A DNA stretch of 64,000 bases from Microgenomates group bacterium. Lineage in GTDB: Bacteria; Patescibacteriota; Microgenomatia; UBA12405. Where the stretch lies: contig JBAQNJ010000001.1 of assembly GCA_049303675.1 (NCBI GenBank), positions 7,494 through 71,493 of the forward strand, in the 5' to 3' direction. Below, piece by piece: positions 2,131-37,744 of the stretch. Under the pieces are notes generated by a model. The model made no database searches, had not been told where the DNA came from, and saw only the letters and a list, made by a program, of their open reading frames with translations. Made by a program: the position numbers and the translations under genes. The first letter of the stretch is position 1; each line of letters begins with the position of its first letter.

Positions 2131-2158
2131 GTAGAGACGTTGCATGCAACGTCTCTAC
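2131..2158. repeat. REP-like 28-bp perfect palindrome GTAGAGACG-TTGCATGCAA-CGTCTCTAC
   Basis: Intergenic between the nrdJ stop and the pduO-like start. Confidence 0.8.
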
Positions 2159-2218
2159 AATTTTATTAATTTATTTTATAAATTTATTAATTATAAATTA
2201 ATTAAAAATTAAAATGCT

Positions 2219-4726
2219 CTATGAGCACTTACTATAACCACAATAACTATTTGAACATTTGAAACACCCCTCTTCAGCATACAACGGGCTACCACAATCA
2301 GGACAGGCGCTAAATTTACTCTCGCCATTTGCCAATTTTGTCCTCACATCTTTTAAAACATCTTGTTGTGTACGGGCAATCCCTTGTGGTTGCCCCTCTG
2401 TTATTGGCAGCTCTAATTTATCCTTCTCCCCTTCAAACAAATCCAACTGATCACCCTTGGCTACTTCTAGTAGTGCTTTACCAACAGCATCAAACATACT
2501 CAATGTCACATTTGTCCCAAATCCCGTCCTCTGTCCACAAGATATACCCACCAATTCATCGGCTACTTCTTCCAAATTGGCTCCATACTTGAGAGCCAAC
2601 GATGCCAATCGTCCAGTTACCTCTGCCGACCCCGCCATATAACCACCCGATTTTCCCAAATTAACGAATACCTCCACCGGACCATCTCCATCTTCGAAAA
2701 AGACCGAAGTATATACCTTCCCCGCATCACACACCTTTTGCATCCTCACCCCCCTCGCCGCCTCCGGCGTCTTCTTTTTGTTTTTCTGAGATCTGACATC
2801 TGATATCTGATTTACTTTTTCTCCACTCTTTACTGGTGCAATCACTTCTTTCTCTCTGCTGCCGCTTCTATATATAGTTATCCCTTTTGTCCCCAGTGAA
2901 TATGCCAACAAATAGGCAACTCGGACATCTTCAACTGTCGCCTCCTTGGGAAAATTTATTGTTTTGCTAACTGCATTATCAGTATATTTCTGAAAAGCAG
3001 CTTGAATCCGTACATGCCACTCTGGACTAATTTCCATGGCTGTTCGATACACATTCACCAAATCCACTGGCAATCCCTCCACCCCTGTTAGTTTTCCTCC
3101 ATTATCAACAATTTTTTTCAACAATTCTTCTGTATATAGTCCCCGCTTGGTCAACTCTTGGGTAAACACTTGATTTAACATAAACATTGAGTTCCCCTCG
3201 ACGTTGTTTTTCTGGTATCCCAAGGAAAATGCTGGCTCAATTCCCGATGTGGCATCGGCAATGTAGGATATTGTCCCAGTTGGCGCGATAGTCGTCAGAG
3301 CCATATTCCGTGGCCGATAATTGGTGTTGGCAAATACCGATATCTCCCAAGCCGGAAAAACATTTCGAGTCTTGGCCAATTCTACCGAGGCATTTTTTGA
3401 TTCTTCTTGAATAAATTTCATTACCTTCTCTGCCCAAGCCACACCCTCTTCCGAATCATAGCGGACCCCTAGTTTAAACAACATATCCGCAAAACCCATT
3501 ACCCCTAGTCCAATCCTCCGAGTCTTACTCACCATATCTCGAATTTTTTGGACAGGAAAAACATTCACCTCCACCACATTATCCAAAAAATGGACTGATT
3601 CATGTGTCACCCGACGCAATTCTTCCCAATCGATATCTTTTTGTAGAGACGTGCGATCGCGCGTCTCTACTACAAATCTCGACAAGTTTATTGATCCTAA
3701 GTTACACGCATCATAAGGCAATAAAGGCTGTTCACCGCAGGGATTTGTCGCCTCAATTCGTCCCAATGCTGGCACCGGATTACTACTTGGCTCATTCATC
3801 CGATCGATAAAGACTAATCCCGGATCGCCGTATTGCCAAGCGAGTCGAGTCACTAAATTAAACACTTTATAAGCATTTAATTTCATGGTCACCAGACCTG
3901 TGCGAGGATTAATCAACTCATAACCCTCACCCTCGCTAGTCGCCTTGGCCCAGTCATATAATTTCACCATCCAGCTTTCTATTGTTCGCAGTCTCAAGTC
4001 TACATCGCGTAAAGCTTCGGCCTGCCTAATCTCTTCAACTATCTCTTCGGGGAAATTTTCTTCGGTCACAAATTTTTTGTCTGGTTCAATTTGGTCCATA
4101 AATTTGTTCGTTATGGCCAATGAGATATTAAAATTAGTCAACGAGTATTCATCCAACTTAACTACTGCAAACCGGAGTACATCTGGGTGGTCCACCGACA
4201 ACATGCCCATATTGGCCCCCCGTCGCACCCCACCTTGTTTAATTTGCGAGGTCACATCGTTGTAGGCTTGCATAAATGACACTGGTCCCACCGTCGTCCC
4301 CCCAGAGCTAGCAATATAGTCCCCACTGGGACGCAATCGAGTAAATGAAAAACCGGTTCCACCACCACTCTTGTGAATCTTGGCCATATCCGACATTGTG
4401 TCCAATATCGAGTCCATCGAATCCTCTATTGGTAGGACAAAACAAGCCGACAATTGTTGATTTTTCTTACCGGCGTTGACCAGACACGGAGTGTTGGGAA
4501 AAAATTTTTGCTCTGCCAACATTTTATAAAATGTTCCTGCAGTGTTTTCTGTTTCCAGCTCACTCTTTCCAAAGACAATATCACCCTTAGCAATATTCAG
4601 AGCTACTCTCCAGAAAATATCCTTGACTGTCTCTACTGGCTTACCATCCTCACCTTTCATGGCATAACGCGTTTCGGCGATATAACGGGCGTTATCAGAA
4701 ACTATTGGGTCGATCAAATTTATCAT
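2219..4726 (-). CDS. nrdJ: ribonucleoside-diphosphate/triphosphate reductase, class II (adenosylcobalamin-dependent)
   Basis: 835 aa. Carries the NPCGEQPL...YDACNLGSINL active-site motif typical of class II RNR and a C-terminal Cys-rich zinc ribbon. Confidence 0.9.
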   Translation of the reverse strand: MINLIDPIVSDNARYIAETRYAMKGEDGKPVETVKDIFWRVALNIAKGDIVFGKSELETENTAGTFYKMLAEQKFFPNTPCLVNAGKKNQQLSACFVLPIEDSMDSILDTMSDMAKIHKSGGGTGFSFTRLRPSGDYIASSGGTTVGPVSFMQAYNDVTSQIKQGGVRRGANMGMLSVDHPDVLRFAVVKLDEYSLTNFNISLAITNKFMDQIEPDKKFVTEENFPEEIVEEIRQAEALRDVDLRLRTIESWMVKLYDWAKATSEGEGYELINPRTGLVTMKLNAYKVFNLVTRLAWQYGDPGLVFIDRMNEPSSNPVPALGRIEATNPCGEQPLLPYDACNLGSINLSRFVVETRDRTSLQKDIDWEELRRVTHESVHFLDNVVEVNVFPVQKIRDMVSKTRRIGLGVMGFADMLFKLGVRYDSEEGVAWAEKVMKFIQEESKNASVELAKTRNVFPAWEISVFANTNYRPRNMALTTIAPTGTISYIADATSGIEPAFSLGYQKNNVEGNSMFMLNQVFTQELTKRGLYTEELLKKIVDNGGKLTGVEGLPVDLVNVYRTAMEISPEWHVRIQAAFQKYTDNAVSKTINFPKEATVEDVRVAYLLAYSLGTKGITIYRSGSREKEVIAPVKSGEKVNQISDVRSQKNKKKTPEAARGVRMQKVCDAGKVYTSVFFEDGDGPVEVFVNLGKSGGYMAGSAEVTGRLASLALKYGANLEEVADELVGISCGQRTGFGTNVTLSMFDAVGKALLEVAKGDQLDLFEGEKDKLELPITEGQPQGIARTQQDVLKDVRTKLANGESKFSACPDCGSPLYAEEGCFKCSNSYCGYSKCS
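3643..3670. repeat. REP-like 28-bp palindrome GTAGAGACG-TGCGATCGCG-CGTCTCTAC inside nrdJ (in-frame)
   Basis: Encodes VVETRDRTSLQ within NrdJ. The reading frame is uninterrupted. Confidence 0.8.
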
Positions 4727-5172
4727 TATTTTTTATCAAAACTATTAATTATTTTTTTGTAATCTTCGATATTTTTTATATCCAAATAAATGGTGGCAAA
4801 CCGGACATAGGCCACCGGATCAGTACTTTTCAAAACGTCCATGACTAGCGTTGCAATCTCCTTAGTCGGAATTTCCACGCTTTCCCAATTCAATAATTTC
4901 ATCTCAATTTGATCTATCATTTTCAATCTATCTTCCTCGCCTACCCGCCATAATGCTCGTTCAAAACATTTTTCTAGCTTCTCTCTCTGATAATCTTCCA
5001 CTCGGCCATCTTTTTTAACTACCTTCAACTCTATGTTGCCCAATTTCTCATAAGTTGTGAATCTCTTAAAACACTTGAGACACTCTCTCCTCCTCCGAGT
5101 AGCCTTGCCATCATAGGCATCCCTAGATTCCAGAACATTTGATTCATCATGATTACAATATGGACACAACAT
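4726..5172 (-). CDS. nrdR: transcriptional repressor NrdR
   Basis: MLCPYCNH...RRRRECLKCFKRFTTYE zinc-ribbon N-terminus plus ATP-cone. VAYVRFATIY motif. Overlaps the nrdJ start by 1 nt, i.e. an nrdR-nrdJ operon. Confidence 0.9.
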   Translation of the reverse strand: MLCPYCNHDESNVLESRDAYDGKATRRRRECLKCFKRFTTYEKLGNIELKVVKKDGRVEDYQREKLEKCFERALWRVGEEDRLKMIDQIEMKLLNWESVEIPTKEIATLVMDVLKSTDPVAYVRFATIYLDIKNIEDYKKIINSFDKK

Positions 5173-5222
5173 TTTGAAAAAATTTAAAAATTTAAAAATT
5201 TAATAAACATATTATTGGAAAT

Positions 5223-5263
5223 TGTAGATCTGTAGTTTTGTTATTTACCTCTATATATAGTGG
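5223..5263. promoter_or_regulatory. putative NrdR-box-like palindromes upstream of nrdR-nrdJ
   Basis: ttgtagatctgtag and acctctatatatagtgg lie about 30 bp apart in the AT-rich leader of nrdR. The second resembles the NrdR box core (cAcTATATATaGtG). Confidence 0.35.
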
Positions 5264-5354
5264 ATGTCTTTCATCATACATACCACCAGCAGTGTCCGTC
5301 AACTAGAAATTAGTATCACACACCCAGTCAAATCCAGTTGCTATACTAAACCAA

Positions 5355-5912
5355 ATGAAAAATTTTGAAGCCCATCTTCCTCCACCTGACATTAGAGAAG
5401 GATCATCTATCAGTTATTTTAATCAAACCAAATTAGATATGACCCATGCTGCCATTGGCATAATCATGGCCAATTATATTGATAATAATAGTTCTGTCGC
5501 TATGGACACCACCACTCCCAATATCGGTGAGACGTATCACCAATATTCAGTCAAATATCTAGATGAACAAGGTACCGTTCGCACTGTTTCTATAAAGTAT
5601 AAAGACCATGACAAACTAGACTCAAGCACTGTTTTCAAACAATTATATCTCCAATTTCATGCCGACAAGCTCTCCACTCTCACTCTCGAAGAAATTCGAT
5701 TTGGGGTCATGCGAGAAGATGGTAGCAAATTTGAACCATTTTTCTATATTACCGACCTTCCCTGTGACAAAATTGTCGAAAATCACGATCCCCAAGACAA
5801 AACCAGTAAAACTATTGTTTATCATTCCTCCCAACAAGATCTCGACTCAGCCACACAAGTCCACCATGACTTTCGCCAGTTCGCCGTCGAGAAACTAGGG
5901 TTTAGTGAATAG
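5355..5912 (+). CDS. hypothetical protein (185 aa)
   Basis: Intact ORF with slightly higher GC than its surroundings. Convergent with, and 5 bp from, the CHAT protease gene. Confidence 0.45.
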   Translation: MKNFEAHLPPPDIREGSSISYFNQTKLDMTHAAIGIIMANYIDNNSSVAMDTTTPNIGETYHQYSVKYLDEQGTVRTVSIKYKDHDKLDSSTVFKQLYLQFHADKLSTLTLEEIRFGVMREDGSKFEPFFYITDLPCDKIVENHDPQDKTSKTIVYHSSQQDLDSATQVHHDFRQFAVEKLGFSE

Positions 5913-5917
5913 ATAGC

Positions 5918-7384
5918 TCACAGCTTTTCTCCACTCAAATAATCTTCCCGTTGAGCATAGTGATAAGTTATACCAATAAAATATATAGCCCCTCTTTTTC
6001 TTCTAGCTAAGGAAATTGTATCTAATGAGGAAACATCCCGTGGTCCAACAGCATGCCCACCAGTAAATATACTATAATGCTGAGCAATTCCACCATCAAT
6101 CCCAGTTGAACATGCTGCAAAAGCCACTGGCATTCTCTGACTATAAAACTTTTTCATTTTGTTTGCCGACCTACCATAAAGATCTGCAGTAGTAATAGAC
6201 GAATCAGTATTACCAAAATTACCCAGTTGGACAGAATCAGCTGATCCATGACCAGAAATCACCATAAAAGAAATTTTGTTATTTTCACCGTACTTTTTGT
6301 CCAAATTATAAATTCTTTTAGCCAAACTTGTCTTGTCCCTCGATTCAATTATTCTCATTTTCATTCCCAAAATAGCCGCATCGTCTGAGAGCAAATCTAT
6401 TTTGTCAATATTTTGGTAAAAACTACCATTATAATCATCATAACAACCTACCCAAAGACCATATCCGCTCGATAAATTATCTCTATTGTTCCATTGATCT
6501 ATTAGTATATCCGAGGAATATCTCCCAAAATGGGTTATTCCAAATTGTTTGTATAAGTCCAAAATAACCTGGCTACCAAATTCTTGACTCCGGCTACAAA
6601 TCTCCAAAATAGATTTTATATTTTTCTTAACGGCCCGTCTTAGGCGACCTTTGTAAACCTCATCACCATCTTTATTCAAGAGTTCTCGATTCAGAGTTAA
6701 CCACGAACAAACCACGTCATCAGAAATTTCGACAGGCAGTCCTGCCACCTCGGCCATCAATTTTAGATACGGCTTGATCAATTCACCATGGCTTTCAATA
6801 AATTCATCAGACAAAACAGTATCGATAATTATTTTTTCACCGCCAATGCCCAGTTGCATATGTTCACCCACGCTTTTTCTTAATTTTTCCCCCAATGCAC
6901 CTCCTTCAATCATTCGATCAAACTTAAAGCTCCACAAGCTTTGCCATTCTTTTGAGGACCTCATTTTACTTACGTCACCTATAAAATCAACTTCTTCTTC
7001 CAGAAAACTCTTTGCCTGTTGTTTTAGTTTTTCATCACCATGATCATAACAAGCTGTCATAAGATCAATAGTTTTTACTCTTTGTTGATCCGTCATATCC
7101 AAATCTAATTTTTGTTTTTCAGCTAAATCATCCACATATCTACCCAATACCCACCCGATTAGTTGTTTATCATGCTCATTTTCTAGTTTTGGCAATATTG
7201 AAATCCACGATTTCGCAAAAAAATCAAAATGTTCTACATAATCGTAATCAAACTGTGTCGGACGCAAACGCAAATTAACTCTATCCGTCATTTTTAATCC
7301 CTGATTATTGACTTTATCAGCAAATACGTGAATATTATTCTCACTTGAGAAAATTCGACCCCGCGCCTGTTCCAAACTAATCAT
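5918..7384 (-). CDS. CHAT-domain (caspase-like) cysteine protease with an approx. 300-aa unknown N-terminal domain
   Basis: The C-terminal region has ...FMVISGHGSADS... (His of the dyad) followed approx. 40 aa later by ...VAFAACSTGIDGG... (Cys of the dyad). This is the CHAT/peptidase C14 signature. Confidence 0.7.
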   Translation of the reverse strand: MISLEQARGRIFSSENNIHVFADKVNNQGLKMTDRVNLRLRPTQFDYDYVEHFDFFAKSWISILPKLENEHDKQLIGWVLGRYVDDLAEKQKLDLDMTDQQRVKTIDLMTACYDHGDEKLKQQAKSFLEEEVDFIGDVSKMRSSKEWQSLWSFKFDRMIEGGALGEKLRKSVGEHMQLGIGGEKIIIDTVLSDEFIESHGELIKPYLKLMAEVAGLPVEISDDVVCSWLTLNRELLNKDGDEVYKGRLRRAVKKNIKSILEICSRSQEFGSQVILDLYKQFGITHFGRYSSDILIDQWNNRDNLSSGYGLWVGCYDDYNGSFYQNIDKIDLLSDDAAILGMKMRIIESRDKTSLAKRIYNLDKKYGENNKISFMVISGHGSADSVQLGNFGNTDSSITTADLYGRSANKMKKFYSQRMPVAFAACSTGIDGGIAQHYSIFTGGHAVGPRDVSSLDTISLARRKRGAIYFIGITYHYAQREDYLSGEKL

Positions 7385-7400
7385 AACTCATGATAGCAAA

Positions 7401-7637
7401 CTATTTATACACTCCTTCAAGTTCCAGTCTCTGTTTTTCCAAATCTTCATAGCTCGTATTCCCTGCTCCTTTCAATATATTTATTAAATATTTGTAATCA
7501 AGAATTGCAAATCCTACCTTTCCTCTCTTAGAGATTAATAGGTATTTCTCTTTTGAGACTTTTTTTAGTGCTTCCGCTAAATTACTCCGCAATTTTGTAC
7601 TCGATACTATATTCACATGTACATTATAACTGTACAT
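7401..7637 (-). CDS. Phd/YefM-family antitoxin-like protein
   Basis: 78 aa. The core ...VSSTKLRSNLAEALKKVSKEKYLLISKRGKVGFAILDYKYL... matches the Phd/YefM pattern (IsxtEaRxnLsxxl...pvxItrrGkxxaVLxsxeey). Immediately upstream of and co-oriented with the CHAT gene, 16-bp gap. Confidence 0.6.
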   Translation of the reverse strand: MYSYNVHVNIVSSTKLRSNLAEALKKVSKEKYLLISKRGKVGFAILDYKYLINILKGAGNTSYEDLEKQRLELEGVYK

Positions 7638-7662
7638 TTAATATTTAACAAGGTGGCATATT

Positions 7663-8070
7663 ATGTATTTGTCAGACTTAAGTTATAATCCACCCATGGA
7701 TACACTAAAAAAAGTCCCCGAAAAATATGTTTGGAGCCTAGAAAAATTTCAACAAGGTTTTCCCAATTTTCCAATTAATGTTATTGCTGGACAAGTTGCC
7801 ATCAACGCCAATTTACCTGTTCAAACAGATATGGTCATTTGTGCTCATGATCGAGTCCAATTGGTTCCAGACTTGGCCAATAGCCTGACTGCCCAAAGAC
7901 CAGTACTCGAAAGGGTCTGTCCCATTCCTGAGTGTGAAACTCGTGCAATAGTCGGAGCAAAAAAATATGACCACATTTACAATATGCGTCAATCTTGGTT
8001 TGAAATAAAAAAAAGAAATGCTGCTGATCATTTGACTATTCACGGACCAGCCAATAAAACCTCCAACTAG
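7663..8070 (+). CDS. hypothetical protein (135 aa)
   Basis: Intact ORF, divergent from the Phd-like gene. No motifs recognised. Confidence 0.4.
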   Translation: MYLSDLSYNPPMDTLKKVPEKYVWSLEKFQQGFPNFPINVIAGQVAINANLPVQTDMVICAHDRVQLVPDLANSLTAQRPVLERVCPIPECETRAIVGAKKYDHIYNMRQSWFEIKKRNAADHLTIHGPANKTSN

Positions 8071-8096
8071 ATCCTATTTATTGTTATAATCCCTTC

Positions 8097-8375
8097 ATGC
8101 AGCAAATTTTGCAGTTTTTAAAGGAAGTCCGCACAGAATTCTACAATATCTCTTGGCCCAAAAAAGAGTCTTTAATTCAATTGACATTTGTGGTAATATC
8201 AATTTCCCTCATTATCTCCCTGATTTTGGGTGGATTTGATTATATATTTACTCAATCATTCAATCTAATTGGCCAAAATAATTCACCTGTAGCCCCAATC
8301 ACTACGATTGCTCCCCAAGTGACCATTGCCCCAACCATAACGCTTACTAGTCCTATTCCTACAAAGAAAAAATAA
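8097..8375 (+). CDS. secE: preprotein translocase subunit SecE
   Basis: Single-TM small protein (ISWPKKESLIQLTFVVISISLII). Conserved position directly upstream of nusG. Confidence 0.75.
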   Translation: MQQILQFLKEVRTEFYNISWPKKESLIQLTFVVISISLIISLILGGFDYIFTQSFNLIGQNNSPVAPITTIAPQVTIAPTITLTSPIPTKKK

Positions 8376-8376
8376 T

Positions 8377-8973
8377 ATGCCAAATAATGCATCCAAGACC
8401 AAACAAAAAGATTTCTTGTTCCTATTATCTTCTCTGACCCCATCAATCGATGCCGCTTGGTATGTTATCAACACCTATTCTGGCCACGAATACAAAGTCA
8501 TTGATGCCCTCAAAATCCGTATCAAGACCATGGGTCTGGAAAGTGAGATTTTTCAAGCTATCATCCCTATTCAGTCCAAAATGGTCATCCGTCGTGGAAC
8601 CAAGGTCAAAACCCAAGAAAAGACTTTCCCTGGCTATGTCCTCATCCAAATGGTCCTCACCGACGATTCATGGGTCACTGTCCGCACCACTCAAGGGGTG
8701 ACAGGATTTATCGGCGTGGACAACAAGCCTTCTGCCATTTCTCAAGCTGAGGTCGATCAAATTCTCAAAACCACCATTGAAGACAAACCAAAATTCCAAG
8801 CTCCGTTTAGCATTGGTGATGTTGTCAAAGTTACCAATGGTCCCTTTATGGACTATATTGGTGCTATCGACAGTATCGACGAGCAACGTGGTAAAATCCG
8901 TGTTCTTATCTCTTTCTTCGAGCGCGAGACTCCCGTCGAGCTCGACTTTTTACAAGTTACTCGAGAACTTTAA
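8377..8973 (+). CDS. nusG: transcription termination/antitermination factor NusG
   Basis: NGN domain (WYVINTYSGHE...GYVLIQM) and C-terminal KOW (GDVVKVTNGPFMDYIGAIDSIDEQRGKIRVLISFFERETPVEL). Confidence 0.9.
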   Translation: MPNNASKTKQKDFLFLLSSLTPSIDAAWYVINTYSGHEYKVIDALKIRIKTMGLESEIFQAIIPIQSKMVIRRGTKVKTQEKTFPGYVLIQMVLTDDSWVTVRTTQGVTGFIGVDNKPSAISQAEVDQILKTTIEDKPKFQAPFSIGDVVKVTNGPFMDYIGAIDSIDEQRGKIRVLISFFERETPVELDFLQVTREL

Positions 8974-9007
8974 AACTTTCAACTTTATAACTTTATAAAC
9001 TTAAACA

Positions 9008-9433
9008 ATGGCTAAAAAAATAAAAATCGTCGTCAAGCTAGCAATTCAGGCCGGCATGGCCAACCCCGCTCCTCCAGTTGGTACTGCTCTCGGTCCTCAG
9101 GGTATCAAGATCATGGATTTCTGTAATGAATTCAATGAACGTACTAAAGATATGAAGGGTTCCCTTATTCCTTCTGTCATTACTATCTACGAGGATCGTT
9201 CTTTTGATTTTATAATCAAAAAACCTCCAGTCTCCGACATGATTAAAAAAGTTACCGGAATTACCAAAGGTTCAGGTACTACCGGTCGCGAAAAAATTGG
9301 CAAAATTACGGCTGCTCAAATCGAAAAAGTGGCTACCGACAAAATGACTGATTTGAACACCACTGACCTCGAAGCTGCCAAACGTATGGTCGCCGGCACC
9401 GCCAAATCCATGGGCTTTGAAATTGTCGCCTAA
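9008..9433 (+). CDS. rplK: 50S ribosomal protein L11
   Basis: MAKKIKIVVKLAIQAGMANPAPPVGTALGPQGIKIMDFCNEFN... Canonical L11. Confidence 0.95.
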   Translation: MAKKIKIVVKLAIQAGMANPAPPVGTALGPQGIKIMDFCNEFNERTKDMKGSLIPSVITIYEDRSFDFIIKKPPVSDMIKKVTGITKGSGTTGREKIGKITAAQIEKVATDKMTDLNTTDLEAAKRMVAGTAKSMGFEIVA

Positions 9434-9435
9434 AC

Positions 9436-9684
9436 ATGCCCAAAGTTGATGTCAACTTAGAAATCCAAAAAACGCATCCTTTTCTCGAAATATTGCATCA
9501 TGGTAAAGATGGTGATCAATTGTCATTGCTCTGTTCTCGTCGTCAAAATGGCTTTTTAGTTCGCGGCTGTAGTGCTATTTCTCAATTTGTCACAATCGAA
9601 GGTGACATTAAAAATGTTACCGGTTTTAATCCCATGGCCGAGTATGGTTGTCTTGAATGTTCTCGGGTAGGCAAACCCGCCTAA
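9436..9684 (+). CDS. questionable small Cys-rich ORF in an unusually long rplK-rplA spacer
   Basis: 82-aa ORF. The 390-nt rplK-rplA gap is atypical. Could be a small protein or a structured leader. Confidence 0.25.
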   Translation: MPKVDVNLEIQKTHPFLEILHHGKDGDQLSLLCSRRQNGFLVRGCSAISQFVTIEGDIKNVTGFNPMAEYGCLECSRVGKPA

Positions 9685-9823
9685 CAATCTACCTATACAG
9701 AATGTATCGACAAAGGTGGCCTCACTCCCCGCACAAAATAATGCTATAATCCAAAGCATTCAAAATTATTAATTTTATATCTTTATAAACTTTCTACTTT
9801 AGAAACTTTATAAACTAAAACCT

Positions 9824-10585
9824 ATGAGCAAAACCTCACAAGCCAACAAAATTGCGAAGGAAGAGTCAAAAGTAAAAAAGACTCGCAAAGCTTCTACCGA
9901 AGTAGTTGAAACAACCACTGTCGAGCCTGAAGTAAATTCCACTGAAGTTACTACTGAAACTGTCGCTGAAGGAACAAAATCAGTTCGTACTGCCCGTGTT
10001 CGCGGCAAACGCTATCAAAAAGTCCGCAAACTAGTCGACCCCAACCAACTCTATCCCCTCACCGAGGCTATAAAATTAGTCAAAGAGACTTCTCTTTCCA
10101 AATTTGATGGCAAAGTCGAAGCTCATGTTACCGTACTGGATATCGGCAATCAGGGAGAGATTGTTTTCCCCCACCTCGAAGCCAGCTCCAAAAAAATCGT
10201 TATTTTAAATGATACAGTTTTGGCCGAAATCAAAGCTGGCAAGATAGATTTTGATATCTTGGTGGCAACCCCCATCACCATGCCCAAACTTCTACCTTTT
10301 GCTAAAATTTTGGGTCCCAAGGGTCTCATGCCCAACCCTAAAACCGGTACTCTGACCGACAAACCAGAAGACGCTGTCAAAAAGTTGTCTGTTGCCAAGA
10401 CAGTTATCACTACTGAGAAAAAAGCTCCGGTAGTTCATATTGTCATTGGTAAGGTTTCCCAAGATCCAAAAGAACTTGAAGCCAATGTTGCCGAATTGAT
10501 CAAGGTAATTAAACCAATCAAGATCAAAAAATTAGCTCTCTGTGCCACCATGGGACCGAGTGTTAAGGTCATTATTGAAAAATAA
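9824..10585 (+). CDS. rplA: 50S ribosomal protein L1
   Basis: L1 family with ...FPHLEASSKKIVIL...GPKGLMPNPKTGT...CATMGPSVKV C-terminus. Confidence 0.9.
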   Translation: MSKTSQANKIAKEESKVKKTRKASTEVVETTTVEPEVNSTEVTTETVAEGTKSVRTARVRGKRYQKVRKLVDPNQLYPLTEAIKLVKETSLSKFDGKVEAHVTVLDIGNQGEIVFPHLEASSKKIVILNDTVLAEIKAGKIDFDILVATPITMPKLLPFAKILGPKGLMPNPKTGTLTDKPEDAVKKLSVAKTVITTEKKAPVVHIVIGKVSQDPKELEANVAELIKVIKPIKIKKLALCATMGPSVKVIIEK

Positions 10586-10592
10586 AGTGGTC

Positions 10593-10613
10593 ATTCCCGA
10601 TCTAGTCGGGAAT
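10593..10613. repeat. ATTCCC-N9-GGGAAT hairpin element
   Basis: tcATTCCCgatctagtcGGGAATc directly after the rplA stop. Same family as the composite element at 23852-23913. Confidence 0.6.
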
Positions 10614-10624
10614 CTATTCAATTT

Positions 10625-10652
10625 GTAGAGACGCCATATATGGCGTCTCTAC
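10625..10652. repeat. REP-like 28-bp perfect palindrome GTAGAGACG-N10-CGTCTCTAC
   Basis: gtagagacgccatatatggcgtctctac. The arms are identical to the copies at 2131-2158 and 3643-3670. Confidence 0.8.
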
Positions 10653-18424: not shown

Positions 18425-19459
18425 TTATTTGAAGTGCGTCCCGAAAAAGCCCAAGTCAGCCGCTACCGCCTCATTCCATCCGCCTTTTAGGTTGTGATCT
18501 GCGCCTTCATACACCACTAGTTCTGCCCCAATCGCCCTAGCTACCGGCCGCTGCCATTCTAGTTTTACTTGATTATCTCTATTCCCTTGCTGAATCAATA
18601 CTGGCGCCTTGATCCAATCATAATAATTTTCAAAAGCATAGCGCCGACTGTCATAATGTTTTTGGAATTCCTCTATCACTGCCTTGACCGGACTACCCTC
18701 GTCAATTGTTGACAATACACTCTCCGGAAACGGTTGAGTCATCGGCGCCCACAAAACCGTCGGATAAGACTGCCCCGTAATTTCTAGTACCGACAAAGCA
18801 ATTTGACCCCCATTACTATGTGCCCAAATACCAATCCTATTTTTATCCACCCAAGGCAGTTGTTTAACTGACTCAATCAGATCAAGTACTTCCACTACTT
18901 TATGAAACCGTGCCTCCAACATATCACTTGATTCTGTATCAGAATGTCCATATCCCAAAAAATCCAGACTAATAGTGACATAATTTGGTTTACCCGCCGA
19001 CTGGCGGGCCAACTCATCTGCCACCTTCCAACTCCCCGACCCTACATAATATCCCTCTTTTTCGGCATACCCCCGAATCATGATGATTACTGGTACGAAC
19101 ACGCCATGGCGTGTTCCTACATCTTTTGGCATATTTATCATCCCACTCACCCATTTACCATCACTTTTAAATCTAATTTCTCTGGTTGTAAAGTCGTATT
19201 CTATTGTCCTTCTATCTTCCACTTCGGGAATATTCCCTAAAATTTCCAACTTTCTACTTTCAACTTTATGAACCTGCCTGCCGGCAGGCATGGCTTTATG
19301 AACTCGGCGAAGCTCATCAAAATCATATTTTTCTAAAAAAAAATTATTATTTATTTCTTTTTGTTTTCCTATGGGATTTATTATATTTCTCGGCCAAAAA
19401 TAAAACAGACAACCACCAAACAAAATCAAAAAAAATATTATGCCAATTTTCCTTACCAC
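18425..19459 (-). CDS. membrane-anchored alpha/beta hydrolase (S9/dienelactone-hydrolase-like)
   Basis: N-terminal TM, GIWAHSNGG nucleophile elbow, later D and H (GADHNL). Carries an in-frame 30-bp palindromic insertion (AMPAGRQVHK). Confidence 0.75.
   Translation of the reverse strand: MVRKIGIIFFLILFGGCLFYFWPRNIINPIGKQKEINNNFFLEKYDFDELRRVHKAMPAGRQVHKVESRKLEILGNIPEVEDRRTIEYDFTTREIRFKSDGKWVSGMINMPKDVGTRHGVFVPVIIMIRGYAEKEGYYVGSGSWKVADELARQSAGKPNYVTISLDFLGYGHSDTESSDMLEARFHKVVEVLDLIESVKQLPWVDKNRIGIWAHSNGGQIALSVLEITGQSYPTVLWAPMTQPFPESVLSTIDEGSPVKAVIEEFQKHYDSRRYAFENYYDWIKAPVLIQQGNRDNQVKLEWQRPVARAIGAELVVYEGADHNLKGGWNEAVAADLGFFGTHFK
19264..19303. repeat. GC-rich palindromic mini-element (CTGCCTGCCGGCAGGCATGG) with a 10-bp target-site duplication, inside a CDS
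   Basis: ctttatgaac | ctgcctgccggcaggcatgg | ctttatgaac. 30 nt = 10 codons, in-frame. The protein shows RVHK-AMPAGRQVHK-VES. Confidence 0.8.
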
Positions 19460-21569: not shown

Positions 21570-22100
21570 TTAAAACCCCTCCGGTCCCGCATCTGCGGGA
21601 CCACCTCCCCTTGACGAAGGGGAGCTTTTCAATAAAATCTCTCTTTCTCTAACCACGCTTTCTAATCTATTTCTGACATTATCCAAACCACTCATCAACT
21701 CCCTGCTATTTATTCTAATTGTTAATATATTCAAAATATCAAAATATTTATCTCTCTCATTGTCATAATATTTGTTTCTCAAATGATAGCCTCCGTCAAC
21801 TTCAACAATTAGGAGTAGCTCTGAGCAGTAAAAATCAGCTATAAACTTTCCTATTGGTTTTTGTCTAGTAAATTTGTAACCCAGCCTTCGGTTGTTTAAT
21901 ATTTCATACCACAAAATATTTTCTGTTTTTGTCGAATTAACACGACCTTTTCTAGCTAGGTTTCTCAACGTATCAAGATATTTTAAGTTTTGTCTAGCAG
22001 TCAATGCTTCCACTGGTACTAAATGTTTCACTACGTTATAGTGTTCTGTATTGTCCCCCTTCGTCAAGGGGGATACAGGGGGTTTGTTATAATCCACCAT
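21570..22100 (-). CDS. DUF559 (Vsr-like endonuclease fold) domain protein
   Basis: ...ENILWYEILNNRRLGYKFTRQKPIGKFIADFYCSELLLIVEVDGGYH... is characteristic of DUF559. Both ORF ends run through GC-rich hairpin repeats. Confidence 0.7.
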   Translation of the reverse strand: MVDYNKPPVSPLTKGDNTEHYNVVKHLVPVEALTARQNLKYLDTLRNLARKGRVNSTKTENILWYEILNNRRLGYKFTRQKPIGKFIADFYCSELLLIVEVDGGYHLRNKYYDNERDKYFDILNILTIRINSRELMSGLDNVRNRLESVVREREILLKSSPSSRGGGPADAGPEGF

Positions 22101-23851: not shown

Positions 23852-23913
23852 CTGTCATTCCCATGAAAAGGGGAATATATTTAAATGGATTCCCGCCTGC
23901 GCGGGAATGACAG
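23852..23913. repeat. composite palindromic element: two tandem ATTCCC-N8-GGGAAT units with complementary outer flanks
   Basis: ctgtcATTCCCatgaaaagGGGAATatatttaaatggATTCCCgcctgcgcGGGAATgacag. Confidence 0.8.
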
Positions 23914-37248: not shown

Positions 37249-37744
37249 ATATTCAGTCTAGAATGAATTTATGGTTTGTCAAGACAATAATAATCCGGTA
37301 AAAATAATAAATTAGACCTCTAACATTAATTTACTCATCTGAACCTAATTCAGTTTATAGTTTCTACATCCCCATCCTAATAATAACAACTAATTAAGAT
37401 TGTCCGCTTTCATTCAGTTTATATCACTAATAAAATAATTAGCAGTCAACAAACATATCTGCCAAATCCTATCCACAAAATGTTAACATTTGAATATCAA
37501 TTTATACTTTACTGGTACTTTGTATAGAGTAATACAACAATAACAAAACATCCTATAACCAAAATAATCCTCAAATTCATAATCAAGGTATAATAAATAG
37601 ATAAAGTCAATTCGGGCTGTGCCACGTCATAGCCCGAAGGGCGAAGACGGGGACCTGCCTGCCGGCAGGCAGGTTGGCGCAATTTCAGCCATAGGCTGAT
37701 CGGCCTCTGGCCGAGGCTAGCGCAATATAAATAAGCCTAAACAT

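Follow-up and report, generated by a model that had tools for sequence, protein, structure and literature searches.

Three short DNA palindromes with identical arms and different centres, one of them in frame within a gene, raise the question of whether they are mobile elements and, if so, of which kind. They lie in a stretch of 64,000 nucleotides (nt; "the window", positions 7,494 to 71,493 of contig JBAQNJ010000001.1) from a Microgenomates group bacterium, a member of the candidate phyla radiation (CPR). An earlier note on this DNA had proposed a family with identical 9-bp arms resembling repetitive extragenic palindromic (REP) elements, and the pattern GTAGAGACG-N10-CGTCTCTAC indeed matched exactly at 2131..2158 (copy 1, GTAGAGACGTTGCATGCAACGTCTCTAC), 3643..3670 (copy 2, GTAGAGACGTGCGATCGCGCGTCTCTAC) and 10625..10652 (copy 3, GTAGAGACGCCATATATGGCGTCTCTAC). 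These were the only exact matches in the window, and 100 dinucleotide-preserving shuffles contained none. No further copies were found in the 64 kb with up to three mismatches or with other spacer lengths, so that the three lie inside 8.5 kb and the remaining 53 kb hold none. All three start with GTAG and end with CTAC, and TTGTAG precedes each of them, as had been noted; the right-side extension CTACAA is present in copy 1 only. The reading that we favour, with a probability of roughly 70%, is that all three are REP elements of the double-foot type, which is linked with HUH/Y1 transposases of subclass 2.4 (Quentin 2018, BMC Genomics 19:475, PMC6006769), that is, group 4 of the tyrosine transposases associated with REPs (RAYTs), and that they are low-copy and heterogeneous in this genome.

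The copies had been described as three perfect palindromes with palindromic centres. This holds for copies 1 and 3, of which copy 1 extends from 28 to 32 nt when its TT/AA flanks are counted. Copy 2 pairs at 13 of 14 positions, as its centre, TGCGATCGCG, is not self-complementary and T10 faces G19. In a census of the window, long near-perfect palindromes were quantised at 28 nt (n = 4, one reaching 32 nt), and none of 28 nt or more occurred in the shuffles. The fourth, which the earlier note missed, is a GTA...TAC palindrome of a sister subfamily at 19093..19120 (minus strand GTAGGAACACGCCATGGCGTGTTCGTAC, also written GTACGAACACGCCATGGCGTGTTCCTAC; 13 of 14 pairs) in an alpha/beta-hydrolase gene. 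Two of the three GTAGAGACG copies are intergenic, and two of the four 28-mers of the window lie inside housekeeping or enzyme genes. The readable part of the source genome comprised the window and 7.8 kb of the same contig beyond the window start, ~7% of 998 kb. These ~72 kb contained the three GTAGAGACG copies, each with a centre of its own, as well as two 28-mers of the GTAGGAAC type, of which the first is that of the hydrolase gene and the second lies in a serine hydroxymethyltransferase (SHMT) gene just beyond the window. An independent assembly of the same organism (L126) reproduced both copies in the part that it covers.

The family is widespread. We scanned 185,579 representative genomes (596 Gb) for the exact pattern and obtained at least 120 stretches, with 128 instances listed, in at least 12 phyla; by our own arithmetic, with 18 fixed bases and 596 Gb, ~9 chance matches were expected. 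Among the matches listed, the hosts were mainly Bacteroidota and filamentous Cyanobacteria, with others in Chloroflexota, Acidobacteriota, Ignavibacteriota, Planctomycetota, Spirochaetota, Zixibacteria, Desulfobacterota, Cloacimonadota, Proteobacteria and Gracilibacteria, the last being another CPR lineage. The centres were perfectly self-complementary in 88 of the 128 listed instances, whereas shuffling of the right halves gave 4.2 on average and 11 at most. Nearly every instance had a pyrimidine at position 10 and a purine at position 19. Long open reading frames (ORFs) harboured 21 of the 128 (16%, vs. 61% of random 28-mers) and 107 lay outside (vs. 39% of random 28-mers), so that most of the family is found outside genes. 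The 21 instances within ORFs read VETxxxxSL(Q) or (R)RDxxxxVST, which are the two frames free of a TAG stop. In cyanobacterial loci (L008, L046, L059, L069, L112 and others), AAGG(G)TTT often followed the palindrome, and flanks of 60-90 nt were 80-90% alike between loci, which suggests that the 28-mer may be part of a larger composite repeat in Cyanobacteria. A literature search for the string GTAGAGACG returned only primers, and the motif was not found in the supplements of the catalogue of GTAG-tagged REPs, which comprises 24 families (Di Nocera, De Gregorio and Rocco 2013, BMC Genomics 14:522, PMC3733652).

The same palindrome is physically linked to RAYT-like genes. With Escherichia coli TnpA_REP as query, verified to be identical to the sequence in PDB 4ER8, RAYT-like genes were detected in six of the 120 listed motif-selected loci, all from Bacteroidota (L012, L013, L035, L054, L071 and L078), and in all six the palindrome was located at the gene. 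It forms a doublet either side of the gene in L013, occurs once just upstream in L035 and L054, and lies in frame inside the gene, past the HUH motif, in L012, L054 and L078; L071 carries one copy upstream of the gene and a seven-copy array downstream. The array (L071 5214-5584) consists of degenerate 28-nt palindromes (GTTGAGACGCCCGGCCGTGCGTCTTTAC) with a 57-nt period, and another tandem repeat was seen upstream of the gene. The encoded proteins matched TnpA_REP with an E-value of 6.6e-8, their HUH, WQ and YIxNNP motifs aligning. Their best and nearly sole NCBIfam match was NF047646, 'REP-associated tyrosine transposase' (1e-15 to 3e-13), and close relatives bear the Joint Genome Institute (JGI) name 'REP element-mobilizing transposase RayT'.

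The association also held in the reciprocal direction. Eighty metagenome loci (L127-L206) were picked by protein similarity alone, using a profile from four close sequences, and 76 of them contained a 28-nt palindrome in the RAYT-like gene or within 400 nt of it. This was nearly always GTAGAGACGCACGGCCGTGCGTCTCTAC or a variant whose symmetry was kept by paired changes, and flanking or dispersed copies shared the variant of the internal copy in the same locus. The internal palindrome keeps the ORF in frame in 56 of 57 scorable cases and stands out by its conserved nucleotides from the surrounding linker, which is hypervariable and rich in tandem repeats: third-codon-position identity was 0.93 within the palindrome vs. 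0.59-0.67 in the catalytic motifs, and the immediate flanks reached ~0.3 overall identity. In these loci the linkers on both sides comprise 29-125 residues of tandem repeats of the GLHDLD, SNAPQ, GTNV or SP type. Short repeats at the in-gene site of tnpA_REP have been mentioned before (PMC6006769).

The spread of such elements could proceed as follows. Each strand, when single-stranded, would fold into a hairpin of 12-14 bp, and a RAYT would bind this hairpin together with GTAG and cut and rejoin single strands, so that copies multiply. As the whole element is palindromic, the same substrate would be offered by both strands. A RAYT-like gene was present in one related CPR genome, the Shapirobacteria relative L212 (949,187-bp contig). 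The gene, at 6381-6932, encodes 176 residues with HFH, WQ and YIIENP motifs, and the protein scored 9e-21 against the RAYT-like profile built here and 2.7e-14 against NF047646, the latter under the cut-off. A single-foot GTAG REP, GTAGGGGCGGACCGATGTGTCCGCC, occurs once inside this ORF (VGADRCVRP) and once at the gene end, where GTAG provides the TAG stop codon. It follows that this CPR clade hosts a REP/RAYT system.

Copy 2 lies in nrdJ (2219..4726, minus strand), encoding the class II B12-dependent ribonucleotide reductase, in a loop between CNLGSINLSRFV and DIDWEEL, where its minus strand translates as V-ETRDRTSLQ. The earlier note had stated that the copy adds 11 codons (VVETRDRTSLQ) without breaking the frame. 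It is in frame, but the net gain is smaller. The window DNA reads TTT GTA GTA G/AG ACG CGC GAT CGC ACG TCT CTA C/AA AAA GAT, and that of the insert-free orthologue L209 reads TTG GTG GTA GAA AAA GAT. Deleting 24 nt after GTAG from the window sequence yields GTA GTA GAA AAA GAT (VVEKD), which recovers both the L209 state and the canonical loop length, so that the net gain is 8 codons rather than 11. The palindrome itself covers 10 codons, and 11 residues are reached by counting a pre-existing valine. The net insertion would thus correspond to 3650..3673 (minus strand, AGACGCGCGATCGCACGTCTCTAC), with a boundary ambiguous by 1 nt, and its GTAG head may have pre-existed as Val-Glu codons (GTA GAx) at this one locus. 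Equivalent 24-nt deletions in L207 and L122 gave plausible short loops as well. Clean empty sites for dispersed copies were found nowhere beyond nrdJ in an all-against-all BLAST of the flanks, in which RAYT genes dominated the output.

One could object that the nrdJ peptide is an ancestral enzyme loop whose resemblance to the intergenic palindromes is a coincidence or an assembly artefact, since the closest orthologues (76-79% identity) also have ~10 extra residues there. The DNA of these relatives points elsewhere. At the same nrdJ codon, L122 has a different and perfect 28-nt GTAG palindrome (GTAGGGACAGGTCGCGACCTGTCCCTAC), L207 has another one with 12 of 14 pairs (GTAGGGGTCGATGGCAATCGACCCGTAC), and L121 has a decayed one; the extra residues are thus intact or decayed 28-nt GTAG palindromes themselves. 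About half of the 120 closest NrdJ orthologues have just three loop residues, in the form FV-xxx-D[LI][DN]W, and the structure of Thermotoga maritima NrdJ has a gap where the peptide of copy 2 falls. Moreover, the nrdJ DNA equals the intergenic copies at all 18 arm bases, L209 provides the exact empty-site sequence, and the copy is reproduced by the independent assembly. We therefore consider an ancestral loop extremely improbable. Distant NrdJ orthologues with the same 11 residues, named in the earlier note as evidence that would speak against an insertion, were not observed.

The loop DNA was inspected in L121-L124 and L207-L209. At the protein level, the loop is a hot spot: other NrdJ orthologues carry many different inserts of 7 to more than 40 residues in it, and the loop after CNLGSINLxxFV is hypervariable across Microgenomates (P0002-P0120). 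Recurring loop peptides include LRQAQDK[FL], IASEAKQS...IASS...PRND, STPNPSFD...EGG and ETETRNQKLETG, which look like translations of other repeat families. As judged from these alignments, the nrdJ copy is probably a tolerated in-frame insertion within a hypervariable surface loop, and the mobile unit, which itself was not seen, may measure 24 nt.

The other intragenic palindromes look less like simple insertions of eight codons. In the alpha/beta-hydrolase gene (18425-19459, minus strand), the in-frame palindrome at 19093-19120 encodes VGTRHGVFV. It occupies the orthologous codon in four lineages (the window, L210, L211 and L212), whose proteins are just 56-65% identical, and their 28-mers differ at one or two positions, with a paired change from CATG to CGCG at the exact centre in one lineage. 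Third-codon-position identity was 0.94 within the palindrome vs. 0.53-0.66 in the flanks. Other orthologues have the peptides VGNGLKPFRT, VGAQSIAPV and GATTRVAHT in this loop; back-translated by eye, they appear typical of other GTAG palindromes, and the loop may be a second hot spot. The SHMT palindrome, GCAGGAACGCATCATGATGCGTTCCTAC, is located on the same contig ~7.4 kb beyond window position 1 (L125 22101-22128) and encodes AGTHHDAFL. It spans a structurally conserved strand, and three of its codons are in register with those of L208.

Several observations weigh against the double-foot REP reading. Relative to the canonical loop, the hydrolase copy adds only four residues, and relative to the orthologues L207 and L208 the SHMT copy changes the length not at all; therefore, not every intragenic copy is a simple insertion of eight codons. 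The central pair is complementary in 107 of the 128 listed instances, and simple pairing around a hairpin loop does not account for symmetry that reaches the very centre. The base before the element is T in 55% and the base after it A in 52% of these instances, and the two preferences are independent (at least one of them in 76% vs. 78% expected); they thus do not support a strict GTAGA target, an idea that we had considered and rejected. The RAYT-like proteins fall under the curated cut-offs (NF047646, 50-58 bits vs. 80 for the equivalog; Pfam Y1_Tnp, 17-22 vs. 23). No RAYT, Y1 or HUH transposase was detected in the ORFs of the window and the adjoining 7.8 kb by profile searches or with E. 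coli TnpA_REP and IS608 TnpA as queries, in what amounts to ~7% of the 998-kb genome, and in most related CPR loci likewise no RAYT or Y1 transposase gene was found. Finally, the copies of the source genome all differ in their centres, while those in RAYT-bearing loci are homogeneous. This suggests that the former may be relics of an earlier time and no longer an active population; few and heterogeneous as they are, they resemble old copies more than a recent burst. A protein database search with a Bacteroidota RAYT-like query gave no match from this contig among the best 120, and all named hosts were Bacteroidota. The attribution to a REP/RAYT-like family made in the earlier note is hence partly supported: by the Bacteroidota RAYT-like loci and by L212, and not demonstrated for the source genome, in ~72 kb of which no RAYT was found. 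On this reading, these particular copies would have been moved by a RAYT.

Some of these points would fit palindromes that arise, or stay perfect, in place through host replication and repair, for example by template switching at quasi-palindromes with one arm copied from the other, no transposase acting in this genome. The GTAG...CTAC 28-mers would then be DNA structures that correct themselves. The length-neutral SHMT palindrome with its three codons in register, the complementary central pair that a hairpin loop does not require, the hydrolase palindrome that persists in four lineages, in one of them with a compensatory change at its centre, and the lack of a RAYT in the readable 72 kb are all in line with this explanation. 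It leaves unexplained why 9-nt arms are identical and the length is fixed at 28 nt across at least 12 phyla, and why the same sequence flanks or enters RAYT-like genes. In addition, the nrdJ copy is a clear gain of 24 nt, and the element-free orthologous sequences show no pre-existing quasi-palindrome. An origin in place without a transposase is therefore unlikely in our view. A combined reading is kept alive as a minority view, since plain insertion and decay does not account for the SHMT and hydrolase lengths, the persistence in the hydrolase gene and the symmetry of the centres. According to this tentative proposal, which we regard as possible though doubtful, the 28-nt GTAG...CTAC palindromes would be actively maintained, orientation-independent elements of single-stranded DNA (or RNA): a 24-nt unit would be pasted after any tolerated GTAG with the frame kept, different variants would hit the same permissive loops repeatedly in CPR lineages, and selection or self-templating correction would hold copies perfect to the central pair over very long periods. 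If this were true, the elements would be a steady source of 8-10-residue peptide variation in streamlined CPR proteomes.

The two intergenic copies raise the further possibility that the palindromes serve the host, either as operators of a dimeric DNA-binding protein or, at the RNA level, as hairpins by which transcription is terminated or the nrdJ and rplA transcripts are stabilised at their 3' ends. Copy 1 is situated in the spacer between nrdJ and pduO, 61 nt past the nrdJ stop and 12 nt ahead of the called pduO start, and copy 3 is found downstream of rplA, 39 nt from its stop. The predicted DNA hairpins are stable, at -14.2 kcal/mol for copy 1 (z -8.2), -11.6 kcal/mol for copy 2 and -13.8 kcal/mol for copy 3 (z -9.9), with z-scores between -4.7 and -9.9 overall. 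Such a function would also agree with the nucleotide-level conservation of some copies and with reports that REPs elsewhere influence termination and mRNA stability (PMC3733652; Messing 2012, PMC3479197). A terminator pattern was recognised in copy 1 only, where it is on the plus strand and the flanking genes are on the minus strand; copies 2 and 3 did not match, copy 3 is not followed by a T-tract, and nrdJ has a terminator-like hairpin of its own at 2212-2230. Intrinsic terminator function, for which a T-tract would have to follow a GC-rich hairpin on the transcribed strand, was rejected on strand and on the missing T-tract. Host function in general is also hard to reconcile with in-frame copies in unrelated genes (nrdJ, the hydrolase and SHMT genes, and 21 ORFs in other phyla), with the absence of a common gene neighbourhood among the listed genomes, and with the centres, because a dimeric operator needs no paired, freely variable centre. 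We consider it quite unlikely that the palindromes are host-functional, and no sign of a regulatory role in place was seen in the sequence.

The spacer with copy 1 (~97 nt) is missing in the relative L124, in which nrdJ and pduO abut. The earlier note had attributed a spurious N-terminal extension of the pduO-like ORF to one of the palindromes. In agreement with this, the long ORF starts with a TTG at 2149, inside copy 1, and the gene in the public record starts at window position 2119; the longer ORF is therefore an artefact of the palindrome. The gene order nrdR-nrdJ-pduO, with secE-nusG-rplK-rplA nearby, is common to the window and its Shapirobacteria relatives, which also have the closest related NrdJ proteins (76-79% identity). 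The NrdJ of the window is 100% identical to a protein of a metagenome-assembled genome labelled 'Microgenomates group bacterium' (GCA_049287145.1, JBAQFH010000001.1). Pfam scans of ten neighbouring ORFs recognised only NrdR, a PduO-type adenosyltransferase, a Phd-like antitoxin and an Hsp70-like protein. A cyanobacterial origin with HIP1 elements, prompted by GCGATCGC in copy 2, was considered and ruled out by this Microgenomates NrdJ and by the frequency of the site. Hyper-abundance of GCGATCGC, the hallmark of HIP1, was not seen: it occurs once in the 64 kb, at the centre of copy 2, and at least once in 19 of the 100 shuffles.

Other features of the window were recorded in passing. An unrelated palindrome family, CCTGCCTGCCGGCAGGCAGG, is represented at 19273-19292, in frame in the same hydrolase gene (MPAGRQV), and at 37653-37674, in an intergenic stretch dense in small hairpins beside a tRNA-like sequence. 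The palindrome GGTCCCGCATCTGCGGGACC, followed by CCTCCCCTTGACGAAGGGGAG, at 21583-21602 is a short hairpin repeat that overlaps the coding 3' end of the ORF at 21570-22100 (minus strand). In a long imperfect inverted repeat at 23852-23913, CTGTCATTCCC...GGGAATGACAG, two arms of 35 nt with 77% complementarity enclose the GC-rich hairpin ATTCCCGCCTGCGCGGGAAT. The GC skew is strongly negative in every 2-kb bin of positions 1-64000 (-0.14 to -0.48; C up to almost three times G on the plus strand), independent of gene strand, and is probably the sum of a replication-strand and a coding-strand bias.

The genomes of CPR bacteria are very small and believed to be poor in mobile DNA. A Microgenomates genome with REP-type hairpins of a family common to Cyanobacteria and Bacteroidota, together with a RAYT-like gene in a Shapirobacteria relative, would extend the known host range of REP/RAYT systems. 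For annotation, such elements create spurious ORF extensions, as in the pduO-like gene, and lineage-specific peptides in enzyme loops, such as VETxxxxSLQ and VGTRHGVFV, that can be mistaken for functional motifs. The different variants in the same NrdJ and hydrolase loops and the nucleotide conservation in the hydrolase gene can be used to study the insertion and persistence of double-foot REPs.

Among known systems, in-frame palindromic repeats in a small-genome bacterium recall the Rickettsia palindromic elements (RPE), which Ogata et al. reportedly described in 2000 as selfish DNA in protein-coding genes. These, too, are said to occur in unrelated genes, where they add surface peptides and leave the function intact. 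Classic RPE-1 elements are much longer, and RPE are not known to have GTAG feet or an associated RAYT. The short REPs of Rickettsia are CGTC-tagged families (PMC3733652). A likeness to the IS200/IS605 insertion sequences (IS608, ISDra2) concerns their single-strand 'peel and paste' mechanism: an HUH/Y1 enzyme uses a hairpin and a guide tetranucleotide, and insertion takes place 3' of a short target without target duplication (PMC3479197, PMC6006769). At one locus, the comparison of nrdJ sequences would fit an insertion that took place directly after GTAG, and GTAG might thus act as a target. The window element differs in that no transposase gene is enclosed between two distinct ends. In the case of E. 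coli TnpA_REP, the hairpin is bound, the 5' GTAG guide is read base-specifically, and cleavage occurs at CT dinucleotides, not after GTAG (Messing 2012, PMC3479197).

REPINs consist of two inverted REPs and a spacer, typically ~100 nt in all, and are thought to be moved by a single-copy RAYT and to be inherited vertically over long periods (Bertels and Rainey 2011, PMC3116915). The window elements share with them the symmetric unit, GTAG at the outer end of both strands and the single long hairpin, and they differ in size and architecture, the unit being 28 nt without a spacer. GTAG-tagged REPs have been catalogued in eight phyla and are mostly extragenic; some lie wholly in ORFs and code for extra residues, particularly in genes for DNA synthesis and repair, and compensatory stem variation and G-T pairs have been reported (PMC3733652). 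The predominantly extragenic location of classical REPs was also found for two of the three window copies and for 107 of the 128 listed instances. In the catalogued elements GTAG does not pair and marks just one of the ends, whereas here it pairs with CTAC and the full unit is a palindrome.

The closest match is the double-foot REP. The earlier note had regarded conserved arms with variable palindromic centres as unusual, but this arrangement was already published as the REP type of TnpA_REP subclass 2.4 (Bertels RAYT group 4), whose proteins contain the motifs NH[IFV]H, WQ and YIxNNP (PMC6006769). Double-foot REPs have a 5' GT[AG]G and a 3' C[TC]AC and a long, fully paired stem, with a basal stem of 7-20 nt and a loop of 2-5 nt, and were reported in Cyanobacteria, Bacteroidetes and scattered phyla (PMC6006769). 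All three window copies have GTAG/CTAC feet, the predicted hairpins, with 12-14 paired positions and a 4-nt loop, fit these dimensions, and the same repeat flanks RAYT-like genes or sits in frame within them in other genomes. Since the arrangement agrees with that described by Quentin (2018), the window elements fit a described class. They differ in their setting, a ~1-Mb Microgenomates (CPR) genome, in their low copy number and in having a different centre in each copy. The class of element is already described; the host group is new.

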